Source: an uncultured Candidatus Saccharibacteria bacterium
GTDB lineage: Bacteria > Patescibacteriota > Saccharimonadia > Saccharimonadales > CAZJQT01
NCBI GenBank assembly: GCA_964636215.1
Contig: CAZWRJ010000001.1
Span: 39,928 to 103,927 of the forward strand
DNA length: 64,000 nt
Direction: 5' to 3'
Each line of letters starts with the position of its first letter. The first letter of the stretch is position 1. A program made the translations under genes and the position numbers. Below the pieces are notes generated by a model that was not told where the DNA came from, did no database searches, and saw nothing but the letters and a program-made list of their open reading frames with translations. Below, one piece after another: positions 8,109-36,971 of this stretch.

Positions 8109-8642
8109 CTAGTTTTCTTTGTCCCAACGTTCTATGCAGTCGTTGATGATTTTTTTGGCTTCTGTCACGTTGCCCCATCCTAAAACTCTGGTACTACCCG
8201 GCTTCTTCAAATCCTTGTAGTGGTTAAAGTGATGTTCAATTTTCTGCTTCCACTGTGCATGTAGATCATTAAGCGATTTGATGGCATCACCGGTGTTACG
8301 GTCGTCAACCGGCACGCAGACGATTTTGTGGTCCATTTCACTATCGTCTTCGAAATTCAGCACACCTAGTACTTGAGCTTTTAAATAAACTCCCGTTGGG
8401 ATTGGGTCGTTAGTTAAGACTAGTGTATCAAGTTCGTCGCCATCTTCGTCGAGAGTTTGTGGTATAAAACCATAGTTACAAGGTTTGGCAAAGATACTAG
8501 GCTCTACGCGGTCCAGTTCAAAAATCGCTAGTTTACGGTTCCACTCAATCTTAAGAGTTGACCACTTAGGAATTTCAATGACGGTATTAACTTGGTCATT
8601 ATCTATATCACCAGGCGTAAGTACTTGATTAAAATCGGTCAT
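8109..8642 (-). CDS. ppa: inorganic pyrophosphatase (family I)
   Basis: Family I PPase-like sequence (DGDELD, VCVPVDD). Start moved to ATG 8642 (MTDFNQ...), preceded by GGAGAA. The track start at 8699 adds a non-conserved extension that overlaps the divergent gene. Confidence 0.85.
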   Translation of the reverse strand: MTDFNQVLTPGDIDNDQVNTVIEIPKWSTLKIEWNRKLAIFELDRVEPSIFAKPCNYGFIPQTLDEDGDELDTLVLTNDPIPTGVYLKAQVLGVLNFEDDSEMDHKIVCVPVDDRNTGDAIKSLNDLHAQWKQKIEHHFNHYKDLKKPGSTRVLGWGNVTEAKKIINDCIERWDKEN

Positions 8643-8681
8643 AGTTTCTCCTTTTCTCACCTTATTGTACACTAAGCCCAC

Positions 8682-9353
8682 ATGAGAATTATAGGTCACC
8701 GTGGTGCTGCAGGCAGCGAATTAGAGAATACTTTAGCCAGTCTTCAAATGGCTATTGATTATGACGTCTACGCTCTGGAAGTTGACATTAGAAGAACCAA
8801 GGACAATCATTTAGTGGTTTGTCATGATGCTGATCTAAAACGAGTGGCTAATGATCGCCGCCAGATTAATCACCTGACGCTGTCACAGTTACAAAAGATC
8901 CCACTACTAAACGGATCCGGTGTACCCACCTTAGACGAAGTGCTTGATTTAATTGGTAAAAAACATCTGTTTATTGAATTAAAAGAATCCGGCTGCGCCA
9001 AGTTGTTAATTAAAACTTTGTCCAAATATCCAAACGCCAGGCTAAAAGTGGTGTCGTTTAAGCCAAGTGAGTTAGCCAAAGTACACAAGCTATCTCCCAA
9101 TTTGCAGCTTTACGTACTAGAAAGGACCAGGCCACTTGAAGTTATTCAATTAGCCAAAAAACAGCACTTGGATGGTATTGGTCTGAATTTTTGGTTACTT
9201 AATCCCTTGACGTATTGGCTTTGTAAGCGAGCTGGTCTTGATCTTTATGTATTTACGGTTAACCGCCCATTTCATGCTCGTTTTTTGAGCCGATTATATC
9301 CTGACATAAGTATCTGTACTGACTACCCAGAACGTTATTTGGCCAAGAGCTGA
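8682..9353 (+). CDS. glycerophosphodiester phosphodiesterase family protein
   Basis: 223 aa. IGHRGA...ENT N-terminal GDPD motif and E.D catalytic pattern. Confidence 0.8.
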   Translation: MRIIGHRGAAGSELENTLASLQMAIDYDVYALEVDIRRTKDNHLVVCHDADLKRVANDRRQINHLTLSQLQKIPLLNGSGVPTLDEVLDLIGKKHLFIELKESGCAKLLIKTLSKYPNARLKVVSFKPSELAKVHKLSPNLQLYVLERTRPLEVIQLAKKQHLDGIGLNFWLLNPLTYWLCKRAGLDLYVFTVNRPFHARFLSRLYPDISICTDYPERYLAKS

Positions 9354-9381
9354 TACCAGCAGTCGAGTTATACTACAACTC

Positions 9382-10089
9382 ATGTATAACTTTCGTTTGG
9401 AGAAACTTGATAAAGTGGCACCGACTATTACTATGTTTTGGTTCAAACCCGACAAACCCTTAGACTATACCGCCGGACAATATATTGAAGTCACTCTGCC
9501 CCACAAGAAGCCTGACGACCGCGGACAGAAACGGTGGTTCACACTTACTTCGTCGCCAAGTGAAAATTTGCTAGCTATAACTACCAGATACGCAGGAGCC
9601 AAAAGTAGTAGTTTCAAAAAAACCCTATTTAATTTATCACCTGGAGCCACTTTAAAAGTAACTGGACCTATGGGAGATTTTGTCCTGCCCAAAGATACGT
9701 CTCGACCTCTAGTATTTGTGGCTGGAGGTATTGGCATTACGCCGATGCGTAGCATGGTCAAGTGGCTAACGGATAACAAAGAACATAGAAACATTCAATT
9801 AATTTACGCAGTTCGACGAAGCGAAGACTTGATTTTCCGGGGTTTGTTTAAGAATTACGGTATCGATATTACACCGATTCTATCGGAACCAACTTCTAAT
9901 TGGGATGGAGAAACTGGGAGACTAACGGCCAAACGTATTGTTGGTTTAGTCAACGGAATAGAAAACAAATTGCTCTACATTTCAGGTCCAGAGCCCATGG
10001 TCGATAAACTAGAAACCGATCTAAAACTTTCCGGCTTAAAAGCTGATCAATTGGTTCTGGATTCTTTTCCAGGCTATCCACTAAGTTAA
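9382..10089 (+). CDS. FNR-like FAD/NAD(P)-binding oxidoreductase
   Basis: 235 aa. RWFTLTSSP (RxYS-type FAD motif) and GGIGITP (NAD(P) motif) of the ferredoxin-reductase family. Confidence 0.75.
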   Translation: MYNFRLEKLDKVAPTITMFWFKPDKPLDYTAGQYIEVTLPHKKPDDRGQKRWFTLTSSPSENLLAITTRYAGAKSSSFKKTLFNLSPGATLKVTGPMGDFVLPKDTSRPLVFVAGGIGITPMRSMVKWLTDNKEHRNIQLIYAVRRSEDLIFRGLFKNYGIDITPILSEPTSNWDGETGRLTAKRIVGLVNGIENKLLYISGPEPMVDKLETDLKLSGLKADQLVLDSFPGYPLS

Positions 10090-10104: not shown

Positions 10105-10548
10105 TTATAAATTACTTATTTGCGATAGATGGTCGACAGTTAATATATATGTTTGGAGTTGGGTTCGCGGGACATCTTTAGTCCAAACTTTGACAGCTTT
10201 ACTTATATGACTTTCGAGCTTGCTTAGTAATCTCCGTCCCCGGCTGGTAATTTGGACTTGTCGGCCACGTCGATCGCTGAATAATATTTTTTGTTTTACT
10301 AGCCTCATTTTTACTAAGCTAGTTACTAAAGCGGTTACTTGTGGAAGAGTTACGTCAAGCGCATCAGCTACTTGAGACATGCTAAAGCCACCTCTGTCGG
10401 CTTCAGCAATCACACCTAGCGCTAGCCACTCCATCATGGTTAAAGTCTGGGCTTCAAGCTGGGTTGAAACTATTGTCCTAAGTGCCCGATCAGCACGTGA
10501 ATGCTTTAGACAAAGTTCATGCATTGAAGGAAGAGTAAACCGCTCCAT
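10105..10548 (-). CDS. MarR-family transcriptional regulator
   Basis: 147 aa. Winged-HTH MarR pattern (SQVADALDVTLPQVTALVTSLVKMRLV...DRRGRQV). Confidence 0.8.
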   Translation of the reverse strand: MERFTLPSMHELCLKHSRADRALRTIVSTQLEAQTLTMMEWLALGVIAEADRGGFSMSQVADALDVTLPQVTALVTSLVKMRLVKQKILFSDRRGRQVQITSRGRRLLSKLESHISKAVKVWTKDVPRTQLQTYILTVDHLSQISNL

Positions 10549-10589
10549 AATTTAAATCTAGCATCCCAAAAAAACTTCAGAATGTAAAG

Positions 10590-12537: not shown

Positions 12538-14313
12538 CTATCCCGCAATTTCATAAGCCTTAAGTTTGGCACGAGTTTGTTCGCCAGCTTTAACTTTCTG
12601 CAACTTTAATAACTGGTCATAGATGCCGCCACTTTTAGCCAGATCGTCTGGACTACCGACTTCATCTATTTGACCACCTTTGAGGGTAATAATCTGATCA
12701 ACGTGCTGAATGGTGCTGAGACGGTGGGCGATAATGATAGTTGTCCGGCCGCGCATCAGGTGTCTTAGAGCTTCCTGAACCATAGCTTCAGAGCGGCTAT
12801 CCAAACTACTGGTGGCTTCGTCCAAAATTAAAATCGGTGCGTTTTTGAGTAAGGCGCGAGCGATGGCGATACGTTGTTTTTGACCACCGCTTAGCTTTAG
12901 GCCCCTCTCGCCAATTTCAGTATCGTAACCCTTGTCAAACTTGTCGATAAACTCATCAGCATTAGCCGCTTTGGCTGCAGCGATGATCGCTTGGTCGCTG
13001 GCTTTAGGATTGGCATAGCCGATGTTCTCGCGGATAGTACCAGAAAACAGAGCTGGATCCTGGAAGACAATACCGATATTTTCTCTCAGTGAACTCTGAG
13101 TTACTGAGTTAATGTCTTGGTCATCTATCAAGATATGACCAGTGGTTGGTTCATAAAGTCGAAGTAGCAAATTTGTCAGCGTTGTTTTACCCTCACCACT
13201 TTCACCAACTAGAGCAATCTTGGTATCTGGTCGAACAGTCAGGTTGATTTCCTTGAGAACTGGTTGTTTGGCGTCGTAGCCGAAATTAACTTGGTCAAAA
13301 ATAATTTCCCCTTTAGGTACCTCTAGTTTTTGGCTGCCTGGACGATCACTGATCTGCGGCTCAATTGCCATGATCTCAAAGTAGTCACGACTATCGGCTA
13401 TAGCCTTTTGGGTATTATCGACTAGAAAACTAATGGTAAAGATGGGAATTCTAATCTGCTGGGCATAGAGAATAAGGGCTACCGCTTGGCCTGGCGTCAG
13501 TAAACCCTTTGCAGCCGTAACAAATATATAAAGATAAACCATTAGAAAGACAACATTCAGGAACAACCGCCGGCGCACATCGCGTTCGTGCCAGTAATGA
13601 GACTGGGGCTTGTTAATATTGACCATTTTGGTCAGGTGTTTATCAAAAAAGCTTAGTTCCCTTTTTTCTTGAATGAAGCTTTTGACCACTTTGATTTGGC
13701 CAATAGCTTCGGTAAAGCGGCCGCTAGCAATATCGATGTTGGTGTTTTTTTCGGCTTGGTATTTTTGCCACTTGTCGCTGGTCCGGATAGTTAGATAAAT
13801 ATATACCGGATACAGCGAGAAAAGCATTAAAGCTACCGGCCAGCTGTAAAAAGCTACAATCACCAAGGCAAAAACAGTGCTAAAAATAAACTGCAGGAAA
13901 TTGTTACTCAGCATGTTCATGAAATTGGTGATTTGATTGATGGAACGGTTTAGCCGGTTGATAATTTTGCCGCTTAGTTCAGTGTCAAAATATCGCTGCG
14001 GCAGGGTTAGCAGGTGTTCGTAGTAGCGATTGCTAAGCAAGCGTTGTAATTTGGCAGCCATTTGATCACCTAGGTAGCCGTTGATGTTATTTAAAAAGTT
14101 GCCGGCCACATCCATAACGAAAATCAGTATCGCCAGCACCACCACGTAGGAAATACTGGCCGAGGTTCCTTTATGAATTTCATCTATCGCCCAACCACTA
14201 AACAGGGGTAACAGGAGCATAGTAATACTGCTTAAAATGGTCAGAATACTGATCAAGATATAGTAAGACCACAGTTGGCGGGCAGAGGCGAGAATTTTAT
14301 AAATATGTTTCAC
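12538..14313 (-). CDS. ABC transporter, fused permease/ATPase (MsbA-like exporter)
   Basis: Six-TM domain plus Walker A GESGEGKTT, signature LSGGQKQR and Walker B ILILDEATS. Start placed at GTG 14313 (VKHIYKIL...). The track start at 14448 reads into the GC-rich noncoding island and gives a Pro/Arg-rich, non-conserved-looking extension. Confidence 0.85.
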   Translation of the reverse strand: MKHIYKILASARQLWSYYILISILTILSSITMLLLPLFSGWAIDEIHKGTSASISYVVVLAILIFVMDVAGNFLNNINGYLGDQMAAKLQRLLSNRYYEHLLTLPQRYFDTELSGKIINRLNRSINQITNFMNMLSNNFLQFIFSTVFALVIVAFYSWPVALMLFSLYPVYIYLTIRTSDKWQKYQAEKNTNIDIASGRFTEAIGQIKVVKSFIQEKRELSFFDKHLTKMVNINKPQSHYWHERDVRRRLFLNVVFLMVYLYIFVTAAKGLLTPGQAVALILYAQQIRIPIFTISFLVDNTQKAIADSRDYFEIMAIEPQISDRPGSQKLEVPKGEIIFDQVNFGYDAKQPVLKEINLTVRPDTKIALVGESGEGKTTLTNLLLRLYEPTTGHILIDDQDINSVTQSSLRENIGIVFQDPALFSGTIRENIGYANPKASDQAIIAAAKAANADEFIDKFDKGYDTEIGERGLKLSGGQKQRIAIARALLKNAPILILDEATSSLDSRSEAMVQEALRHLMRGRTTIIIAHRLSTIQHVDQIITLKGGQIDEVGSPDDLAKSGGIYDQLLKLQKVKAGEQTRAKLKAYEIAG

Positions 14314-14391
14314 AGGCTTCAAATACTCTAACAGATTAGATGGGTTACGTCCTGCACAAACTATAACTAGCGTTACGGTTTCTGGAAGACG

Positions 14392-14549
14392 GACAGGTGT
14401 GATTAAGGGGAGGGAGCGAGGGGTAATTGGCGATGGCCAATGACACACTCAGGCTCCCTTGCCTCTTTGTTACGCGATGGCGTTCCGGACCCTGTGGCCC
14501 CCCGATTGCAGCCAGCACCCTGGAGGTGCTGGTGGGCGGATGCGTTTGG
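14392..14549. ncRNA. unassigned GC-rich structured module (5' part of the structured island)
   Basis: No credible ORF. Perfect helices at 14412-17/14453-58, with a G.U-containing extension at 14405-11/14459-67. Hairpins at 14426-31/14436-41 and 14512-19/14525-32. The 5' strand of the 14-bp helix 14482-95/14566-79 lies here. 14392-14403 is the left arm of a 12-bp inverted repeat with 14985-96. Strand unresolved. Confidence 0.35.
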
Positions 14550-14925
14550 AGGGATGGAGGACCAGACAGGGTCCGGAACAATTGGAGCTCAAGCAAATGA
14601 ATGCGAGCTCAGCGGTGGTAGTGAAGGTAAGCCCGAATTTCAACGGGTAGTGGGCAGACTCTGCGTGCTGACAGCACACACAAGTCCATACTGGGCAGGC
14701 GGACGGGAGTCCTAGCCGGCTTTTTTGTTACCTTCACTTCTTGGTTAGCTCTGGTGAGCTAACGCGAACATGGAGAGCGACCAATCCTTACAAGACAACC
14801 GCCGAGGAGGCGCTGTGTCCCGAAGAAGCAACCGACTCTCCATGGAACGTTTGCAGCACAGACCCCCACGAACCTGGCTTAAGCGACACGGCGTCGCACA
14901 AACGTTCAGAAATTCACCATCTATA
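14550..14925 (+). ncRNA. rnpB: candidate RNase P RNA (class-A-like motifs, atypical architecture)
   Basis: The + strand carries four motifs in the order they have in E. coli M1 RNA (recalled from memory): GACCAGACAG (14560-69), AAGUCC..AUA..GGGCAGG (14682-99), AACCGCCGA (14797-805) and CCACGAACCUGGCUUA (14866-81). A P4-like pairing is possible between AAG(U)CCA 14682-88 and UGGCUU 14875-80. A P1-like pairing is possible between 14552-61 and 14913-22. Boundaries and identity are tentative, and P12-P18 could not be placed. Confidence 0.4.
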
Positions 14926-15041
14926 GAGACAGTAGCACCAACCTAGTTGGTTAGGCTCGTGTTACTGTCTCTTGCCAAATAAATATCACACCTGTCAAAG
15001 TACGCCCATAAGGGAGCAAAACTCGACCTCAGAGCGAGATC

Positions 15042-15070
15042 ATTCTATACCTTTTAGCTACTGATTTCAA
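15042..15070 (-). promoter_or_regulatory. sigma70-like promoter candidate pointing into the structured island
   Basis: Minus strand TTGAAA (15070-15065), 17 nt, TAGAAT (15047-15042), just downstream of the pheT stop. It conflicts with the + strand assignment of the RNase P-like motifs, so it may be fortuitous in AT-rich DNA. Confidence 0.25.
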
Positions 15071-18745: not shown

Positions 18746-18801
18746 AGTATTGATTTTCGCAAATTGCGGGAGTCGTTCTTCGACAGAGTGGAAAGGATGA
18801 G

Positions 18802-18984
18802 ATGAATCACGTTGGTATTGTCGTTTTGGTGATATTGGCGATTTTCTTTGCCATCTGGGGACATTACGTCTCCGGCGAAGGCGCCTCCGGAAAGCACAGC
18901 ATCGTCACGAGAGTGGTAGTCATTCTGCTGTTCGTTGCCCTTGCGATTTGGGTGTTCTGGGGGCTAACCCATGTCTACCACTAG
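18802..18984 (+). CDS. small two-TM membrane protein, hypothetical
   Basis: 60 aa. Two hydrophobic helices (VGIVVLVILAIFFAIW / VVVILLFVALAIWVFWGL). GGAAAGGA RBS-like sequence upstream. Visibly more GC-rich than its neighbours. Confidence 0.5.
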   Translation: MNHVGIVVLVILAIFFAIWGHYVSGEGASGKHSIVTRVVVILLFVALAIWVFWGLTHVYH

Positions 18985-18996
18985 TGAAGCGGTATC

Positions 18997-19078
18997 GATG
19001 GTGGGGACTGGTTTCGACCAGGTGAAGCGCGGCTCGGTCTAACCGATGCCACTACATACGCTTCTTTACCCCACCATC
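18997..19078 (+). promoter_or_regulatory. compact structured RNA element (possible cis-regulatory leader)
   Basis: A 10-bp helix GATGGTGGGG/CCCCACCATC (18997-19006/19069-78) encloses three elements. First, hairpin 19008-12/19017-21 with a UUCG loop. Second, helix 19024-29/19059-64. Third, hairpin 19031-37/19043-50. It lies 100 nt upstream of the Ndt-like gene. No known riboswitch class recognised. Confidence 0.3.
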
Positions 19079-19177
19079 CCAGCCACTACATCTCTCTCCT
19101 CCACTCTGTCTTTCACCAGAAAATTGAATCTCGCAGCTTCAATTTTGCGGTGAAGTTAAATATGCTAGGCTTAGATT

Positions 19178-36513: not shown

Positions 36514-36924
36514 TCAGTTCAACGGCGCGTTGATGCGGACCTGGACACCGCAGAACATCCGGCTGGCGCCGGGGCGCATGTCGTGGTCGAGGCCGAGCTC
36601 GTCCTTGGTTCGGTCGAGTACTGCGTCCTCGACGAGTGCATGGGCCGAACCCGGTGTCGACGTCATGCCGTGTGGGATCACCTGGTGGAAGACGTCGTAG
36701 ACGTCGCTCGCGAGCTGCTTGGCGGTCGGGAAGACGGTGCCGTAATTGCACTTGCGGGCCTTCGCGACAAGCGACTCGACGAAGAGCATCGTCTCGTTGG
36801 CCTGTGCCTTGTTGCAGCCCGTCTCGTCCATGATGGCCTCGATGGCCAACTGGCGAGCGGACTTGGACTGGGTCGGGGCCGTGCTGTGCTCGGCCTTGAT
36901 CACATCCTGCACACCTGTGGTCAC
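36514..36924 (-). CDS. hypothetical protein encoded by a compositionally foreign, very GC-rich gene
   Basis: By my hand count about 120 of 136 codons end in G/C, unlike all neighbouring genes. I prefer GTG 36924, preceded by AAGGAGGTG with an 8-nt spacer, over the track start at 36948. Product: (M)TTGVQDVIKAEHSTAPTQSKSARQLAIEAIMDETGCNK.... No family recognised. Confidence 0.65.
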   Translation of the reverse strand: MTTGVQDVIKAEHSTAPTQSKSARQLAIEAIMDETGCNKAQANETMLFVESLVAKARKCNYGTVFPTAKQLASDVYDVFHQVIPHGMTSTPGSAHALVEDAVLDRTKDELGLDHDMRPGASRMFCGVQVRINAPLN

Positions 36925-36971
36925 GAAGACCACCTCCTTAACGTTCACACCCTACTTGGGTGGATGAATTA

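Follow-up and report, generated by a model that had tools for sequence, protein, structure and literature searches.

The locus analyzed here lies in a 64,000-nt stretch of a Saccharibacteria contig (CAZWRJ010000001.1), referred to as the window. Positions follow window numbering unless a homologous locus is named, and the RNA strand is the minus strand, on which pheT is read. Between the start of an ABC-transporter gene (14313) and the stop codon of pheT (15092), an island (14392-14996) was found that probably belongs to the gene of a large RNA closed by pairing of its ends. The guanine-plus-cytosine (GC) content is 0.535-0.60 over 14400-14900 and 0.40-0.45 in both flanks. Open reading frames (ORFs) in the island overlap each other, measure only 57-91 aa and have no start led by a Shine-Dalgarno (SD) sequence. 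A search for hydrophobic, transmembrane (TM)-like or SD-led ORFs detected none in the island or in the other ORF-less members of the family described below, and no peptide is common to the window copy and other members. The window copy thus contains no recognisable ORF. The initial annotation of this DNA had described a GC-rich, ORF-free, helix-dense island, with which GC content, ORF list and shuffled folding all agree; its boundaries for the two flanking genes are likewise correct. The true ABC-transporter start, GTG 14313, follows from alignment with homologues. The ORF listing runs the ABC frame 135 nt into the island (12538-14448, GTG 14448, 636 aa), which is a spurious extension.

Folding was assessed on a 631-nt segment. 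Its minimum free energy (MFE) corresponded to a z-score of -8.61 for the plus strand and one of -9.98 for the minus strand, values that no shuffled sequence equalled. A repeat finder returned the helices 14392-403/14985-996 (12 bp), 14482-95/14566-79 (14 bp), 14925-45/14952-72 (21 nt, 86%), 14620-30/14728-38 (11 bp), 14769-77/14836-44 (9 bp) and 14845-53/14899-907 (9 bp). Every long helix listed in the initial annotation was recovered in place, and the short hairpins listed with them are present in the MFE folds. By itself, the outermost 12-bp inverted repeat is not significant: for arms of 10-12 bp within 1.2 kb, the whole 64-kb window contains 65 inverted repeats (10 bp or longer), compared with 44-70 in shuffled sequences. 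That this repeat truly closes the island, as had been proposed, follows from its conservation and covariation in homologues and not from its length.

The PheT protein of the window places it in the Saccharibacteria (TM7), its best species-level relative in a PheT homology search being 60% identical. Exact-sequence look-up of the window ABC transporter and PheT returned nothing on record. About 20 homologous elements of 323-958 nt were identified in other Saccharibacteria by exact-motif and fuzzy searches, a search for inverted repeats upstream of the ABC transporter, a GACAG-anchored scan and a profile hidden Markov model (HMM) of the leader; relatives of locus L070 were reached through PheT. 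The members comprise the window copy and those at L070, L221, L224, L225, L226, L031, L029, L033, L047, L021, L011, L051 (two in tandem), L035, L068, L037, L050 and L055 (partial), a census biased towards pheT neighbourhoods. Nearly all members are located between pheT and an MsbA-like ABC transporter gene. At L029, L221 and L225 a DUF2207 gene separates pheT from the element, and at L047, L226 and L068 the ABC gene is not downstream of it. Many relatives are empty at this site, the pheT stop abutting or overlapping the ABC start; a check for such empty sites had been proposed in the initial annotation. Locus L051 carries two complete tandem elements (8624-9242 and 9359-9681), which have separate promoters, clamps and 3' flanks. 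Loci L002 and L040, considered for their 10-bp inverted repeats, were discarded (z about -1). Two hairpins at L008 (9091-9135 and 9790-9831), separated by about 700 nt, resemble the 3' hairpin of the family and score 21-24 bits against the 3' portion of the shell model described below. No clamp is recognisable there, and the two hairpins may represent a member that has diverged.

Viral contigs scanned for the exact pattern contained 120 chance matches, none with a fitting 3' arm, and a metagenome scan with GYACTTTGACAGGTRTGAW gave 19 matches, none convincing; the variability of the motif makes it ill-suited to exact-pattern searching. No description of such an RNA was found in the literature searched, and the family is previously undescribed in Saccharibacteria.

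Comparison of the island with 80 related loci by nhmmer and blastn, as suggested earlier, did find homologues, of which only the two ends match. All-against-all blastn of the members likewise aligned the ends only, and words of at least 7 nt common to at least five members come from the terminal motif only. The conserved shell consists of a promoter, a leader hairpin (L1), a linker, a clamp (P1, GACAG.../...CUGUC) and a 3' hairpin (T1) directly after the clamp (Table 1). At the linker, a stretch of 21 nt is identical in the window and L070, though the pheT genes are only about 52% identical; the window interior has no sequence shared with any homologue. A promoter-like site on the minus strand had been pointed out at the outset and was confirmed, equivalent sites lying 40-46 nt upstream of the clamp in both L051 elements (L051a, L051b) and in L221. 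Promoters upstream of the clamp were also recognized by eye in L031, L033, L047 and L011. The possibility that TTGACA in the conserved motif serves as a -35 box was rejected, as there is no -10 box at the right spacing. In homologues, L1 reads NNGG-UY-GAG...CUC-CCNN, with outer pairs that differ (ACGG/CCGU, UCGG/CCGA, AUGG/CCAU, UUGG/CCAG); this comparison is a reading by eye, without statistics, and the leader profile HMM recovers L1. A U-tract follows T1 in L021, L221, L225 and L226. In the window, transcription is inferred from the promoter motif to start near 15035, and the terminator-like hairpin that overlaps promoter and leader is probably the pheT terminator, judging by its sequence.

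Table 1. Features of the window element (RNA strand) and the zinc-ribbon ORFs carried by homologous elements (coordinates of the respective loci)
Feature	Coordinates	Strand	Remarks
Sigma70-like promoter	15042..15070	-	TTGAAA (15070-15065), 17-nt spacer, TAGAAT (15047-15042); 10/12 matches
Hairpin with AGUUUUG tail	15024..15042	-	Terminator-like site; overlaps the promoter and leader of the element
Leader hairpin L1	15011..15029	-	AGG-UC-GAGU-UUU-GCUC-CCU, read from sequence
Single-stranded linker GCGUACUUU	14997..15005	-	Family consensus GCRYACUUU; directly 5' of the clamp
Clamp P1, 5' arm GACAGGUGUGAU	14985..14996	-	Repeat finder, homologues, covariation
Interior, 581 nt	14404..14984	-	Hypervariable, GC-rich; about 12 hairpins; folds include five long helices
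Clamp P1, 3' arm AUCACACCUGUC	14392..14403	-	Repeat finder, covariation, match to shell covariance model
3' hairpin T1 CGUCUUCCAGAAAC...GUUUGUGCAGGACG	14348..14391	-	Begins at the base after the clamp; without U-tract in the window
Zinc-ribbon ORF (e.g. MPRSGMRGCKGCCSGCNGRAGRSSFGGLSKVTCRSCDNTSHVRGCPERPR)	L070 9113-9265; L221 8597-8752; L224 8219-8371; L225 9869-10024		Inside structured RNA; also in L226 and L011

Covariation was analyzed in an alignment (A3) of 15 members, in which each interior was replaced by GAAA. RNAalifold predicted exactly P1 and T1 from this alignment. The cells of P1 and T1 were paired in 88.8% of cases, compared with 72% after shuffling and about 40% with partners slid. 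Double-sided changes occurred in 25 of the 28 P1 and T1 pairs, and the observed measures were reached by none of 500 shuffles; for T1, both sides had changed in 15 of 17 aligned pairs. A covariance model (CM) of the shell, R1, recovered both ends of every member on a single strand. Its two matches in the window, both on the minus strand, score 25.2 and 26.6 bits, the latter covering 14333-14451; the plus strand gave none. No 'mini' shell without interior was present among the 88 sources scanned with R1.

Sequence evidence places the RNA on the minus (pheT) strand. All 16 elements tested had the lower MFE on the pheT strand, and the z-score was better there in 10 of 11. On this strand, T1 is rich in G.U pairs, promoters lie at a set distance from the clamp, terminators with U-tracts are found, and the embedded SD-led ORFs, where present, are encoded. 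Unpaired bases on the pheT strand are A-rich and G-poor, G making up 13% of unpaired bases compared with 27% overall. Cues that had seemed to favour the plus strand, a GGGA 'tetraloop' (14705-14708) and a GAGGA loop (14804-14808), are UCCC and UCCUC loops on the actual strand.

The interiors were compared with respect to folding and coding content. Eleven homologue interiors had z-scores of -5 to -13 despite unrelated sequences, and the GC content of homologous elements was 0.46-0.62. Their architecture is variable, with 4 to more than 20 hairpins inside the clamp, and even the bases just inside the clamp differ among members (GUGUG, GUAUG, AUACA, ACGUA, GCGUG). C-rich loops occur in 12 of 18 members; in the window copy they are UCCUC (14808-14804) and UCCC (14708-14705). 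Within the clade of L070 (PheT 68-78% identical), the 3' 300 nt of the element are alignable and collinear, which argues for vertical descent with fast divergence. This alignable part is coding and contains a Cys-rich zinc-ribbon ORF of about 50 aa behind a strong SD (AGGAGGUGAU-N6-UUG), the SD lying within a UCACC/GGUGA hairpin. Differences at codon positions 1, 2 and 3 of this ORF numbered 36, 30 and 115, respectively. Small Cys-rich ORFs were found in seven members, six of them encoding the zinc ribbon and one (L051b, 41 aa) a DnaJ-like CxxCxGxG protein, all in the 3' part of the interior; an ORF with one TM segment is present in L050. The zinc-ribbon family had no significant match in Pfam or NCBIfam and no match in a database of 5.8 billion proteins. 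ORF-less elements are the window copy and about nine other members.

A tRNA-like unit was detected by ARAGORN inside the L029 element (10475-10555; 81 nt, Gly, anticodon CCC, perfect T-arm GCAGGUUCAAAUCCUGC), and L011 has a partial T-arm-like sequence (GGGUUCGAAUCCCGCC). As such units are limited to L029 and, in part, L011, they were rejected as a family feature.

Taken together, the locus is probably a separate gene for a fold-back, end-clamped regulatory or dual-function RNA, comparable in type to RNAIII or hok and ORF-less in the window genome. Its own sigma70-type promoter would give rise to a minus-strand RNA of about 690 nt, from about 15035 to about 14348. Clamp, L1 and T1 would hide both RNA ends, by which the transcript would be stabilised and its processing points fixed. 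In ORF-bearing members, the closed fold and the local SD hairpin would gate translation, as in mRNAs of the hok/AapA type. In ORF-less members, including the window copy, the RNA itself would be the product. By analogy with RNAIII and RsaE, the most likely mode of action would be that of a trans-acting regulator whose UCCUC and UCCC loops pair with ribosome-binding sites of the GGAGG type, and the window RNA would most plausibly act in this way, through its C-rich loops on start regions.

Several points weigh against this interpretation. The ends of the transcript are inferred from consensus motifs. Covariation, proposed earlier as a check on the helices, is strong in P1 and T1; the interior helices of the window copy are supported by thermodynamics only, and fine-scale covariation for this copy is impossible because the databases hold no close relative. 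A conserved tertiary fold, or a conserved core for catalysis or ligand binding, fits poorly with the hypervariable interior. Enrichment of C-rich loops is modest (20 C-rich compared with 12 G-rich loops). As T1 has no U-tract in the window, the RNA might run on into the ABC transporter mRNA. Finally, one pair of the L031 clamp is A.C on the pheT strand and G.U on the opposite strand.

The closest known systems compare as follows. RNAIII of S. aureus is a dual-function RNA of about 514 nt with many hairpins closed by long-range helices, and its UCCC loops pair with ribosome-binding sites. It contains the small ORF hld, which is missing from homologues in some species, and its ends are better conserved than its centre. 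The family described here is similar in being several hundred nt long, forming its own transcription unit, carrying hairpins inside a long-range helix, and having C-rich loops, an optional ORF and conserved ends. It differs in that no sequence or CM relationship to RNAIII exists, the interior is far more variable and the embedded ORF, where present, encodes a zinc ribbon and not a haemolysin. The hok/sok and AapA1/IsoA1 systems include fold-back type I toxin mRNAs that are locked by a 5'-3' interaction. In a similar way, the compact transcript of the present family is closed by long-range 5'-3' pairing (P1, covarying), and the SD is sequestered in ORF-bearing members. In contrast to those mRNAs, the island lacks a small hydrophobic toxin ORF, or indeed any ORF, and the zinc-ribbon ORFs of the family are not hydrophobic; in the window, an ORF of the toxin kind occurs only in the related element at 18782-19110. 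An antisense RNA gene was not seen either, no search having been aimed at one. With OLE, ROOL, GOLLD and raiA RNAs, the family shares a similar size and the form of GC-rich, helix-dense islands in AT-richer genomes. The L029 member holds a tRNA-like unit, and some GOLLD representatives also contain such units. Those RNAs have highly conserved nucleotides and fixed multi-stem architectures, whereas no interior position is conserved in the present family.

A second possibility is put forward tentatively: the shell may serve as a dedicated chassis on which a new class of large Saccharibacteria RNAs is built, with interiors selected for dense folding and a sequence that is free or driven to change. 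If so, the element could for example be the RNA partner of the zinc-ribbon microprotein, in a ribonucleoprotein with its protein component encoded in cis in certain lineages, or alternatively a species-specific recognition or decoy RNA in an episymbiotic lifestyle. It would then be an RNA gene without a described counterpart and not a regulator like RNAIII or hok.

The embedded ORFs suggest a less favourable account, in which the element was the mRNA of a zinc-ribbon or other microprotein whose ORF was lost in the window lineage, leaving a decaying, functionless fold-back untranslated region. The homologous zinc-ribbon ORFs belong to two distant groups of members and, like the DnaJ-like ORF of L051b, share the 3' position noted above; by eye, 14470-14530 (minus strand) contains TGC..TGC...GAACG..CGCG-TAA at the place of the C-terminal codons and stop of the L070 ORF. 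Neither a protein HMM nor a DNA HMM detected a zinc-ribbon remnant in the window, however. Decay should also bring genome-like GC, z-scores near 0 and loss of promoter and clamp, and the ORF-less members show the opposite: about ten of them keep near-consensus promoters, L1, P1 and T1, with z-scores of -6 to -13. A decaying relic is unlikely for this reason.

Given its position, the element might instead be a cis-acting leader or attenuator of the ABC transporter, in which the clamp with a short extension (ACUUU with ARAGU) competes with T1 over read-through. In its favour, 65-80 nt separate the clamp from the ABC start in the window, L021, L029, L033 and L035, and some species have a genuine terminator in T1. 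In addition, pairing between the bases 5' of P1 and the 5' strand of T1 is possible for 12 of the 15 members of alignment A3. Yet no ABC gene follows the elements of L047, L226 and L068, and in several ABC genes the start codon is preceded, at 7-9 nt, by a separate -10-like box (GGTACAAT). The extension helix is just 3 bp in the window and never covaries, and there is no conserved sensing core. We regard this function as less likely still than the relic. The gene that follows the element has a -10-like box only 7-11 nt ahead of its start codon in the window (TAGAGT, 14313-14345) and in L029, L031, L035, L037 and L047 (GGTACAAT or TATAAT). The nearness of this box to the start codon suggests that these ABC transporter mRNAs are leaderless or have very short leaders.

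The initial annotation had also considered a structured mobile insertion, similar to a miniature inverted-repeat transposable element (MITE) with terminal inverted repeats. The perfect 12-bp repeat at its ends, the patchy species distribution, the empty sites, the tandem copies in L051 and a related element elsewhere in the window (18782-19110) agree with such an origin. Against it, the members are variable inside and conserved outside the repeats, with promoter, leader and 3' hairpin conserved outside or at the repeat, the opposite of what a transposon shows. None of the members is flanked by a direct repeat, so that a target-site duplication is lacking. The leader profile finds one copy of the main type in 64 kb, phage and plasmid collections contain no match to the element, and the interiors diverge collinearly within one clade. 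Conservation at and outside the repeat, the missing target duplication and the syntenic position make a mobile insertion improbable. The suggestion of two adjacent RNAs was abandoned, as one clamp surrounds the whole element in all species.

That the island is a divergent version of one of the known large RNAs (RNase P RNA, transfer-messenger RNA (tmRNA), OLE, ROOL, GOLLD, HEARO or an ORF-less group II intron) can practically be dismissed within the reach of the tools used. The size range agrees, the plus strand contains the P4-like words AAGUCC and GGCUUA, and GUGUG...AC is found at the inner edge of the clamp, but no Rfam family matches and no interior word is conserved among homologues. Rfam 15 was searched on both strands with the window, the island, seven homologous loci and the smallest member, at gathering thresholds and then at E<=10. 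At gathering thresholds, the island had no match and the window three tRNAs; permissive scans of the island and homologues gave only chance miRNA-like hairpins. The remodelled RNase P RNA proposed at the time was rejected, as there was no match to RF00010 or RF00011 on either strand or in the seven homologous loci and no interior word of at least 7 nt is common to the homologues; the conserved P4 strands (GAGGAAAGUCC ... ACAGAAnnCGGCUUA) are not retained in homologues, and the look-alike words lie on the plus strand, opposite to the RNA strand. ARAGORN found no tmRNA; the three tRNAs that it reported for the window all lie outside the island. OLE, ROOL, GOLLD, HEARO and raiA gave no match to the family covariance models. 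For a group II intron, neither Intron_gpII nor D1-D4 matched, and GUGYG is not conserved at the inner edge of the clamp. A T-box leader had no Rfam match, and the element lies downstream of pheT and not upstream of pheS. From the overall interpretation given initially, the large, structured, RNA-like island, its closing repeat and its minus-strand promoter were retained; RNase P, two RNAs, mobile terminal repeats and the plus-strand cues were not.

Genomes of Saccharibacteria and other Patescibacteria are tiny and densely coding. A 600-nt non-coding gene is costly in such a genome and, having its own promoter and a strong fold across species with PheT proteins about 50% identical, is probably functional. 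According to a 2022 preprint on cultured TM7x, no small RNA had yet been validated in its genome (10.1101/2022.03.25.485537). The family offers a testable first regulatory or structural RNA for the phylum, and the zinc-ribbon microprotein represents an unannotated protein family. An invariant shell around a hypervariable, structure-selected interior also offers a test case for RNA structure evolving without sequence conservation. Annotation based on Rfam misses such genes entirely.

Two further fold-back arrangements were observed in the window. A second clamped element (18782-19154, plus strand), divergent from pheS, has an 11-bp clamp, GACAGAGTGGA/TCCACTCTGTC (18782-92/19100-110), followed immediately by a 20-bp hairpin (19112-19154). 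It encloses a 60-aa ORF with two TM segments (18802-18984), the SD of which adjoins the 5' arm of the clamp. Homologues were found upstream of pheS in L037 (4237-4575), where a 17-bp clamp covers the SD, and in L225 (3357-3859). The leader of this element (CGAUCUUC|GACAGAG) resembles that of the main family, and its architecture is like that of hok-type (type I toxin) mRNAs, by analogy. A perfect 12-bp pairing (36427-36438/36927-36938) joins the SD region AGGAGGUGGUCU of a 144-aa ORF (36514-36948, minus strand) with sequence just past a terminator-like hairpin. This ORF is GC-rich and foreign-looking in composition. The 651-nt unit, with a z-score of -6.35, may be a third 5'-3' fold-back transcript in the window genome.

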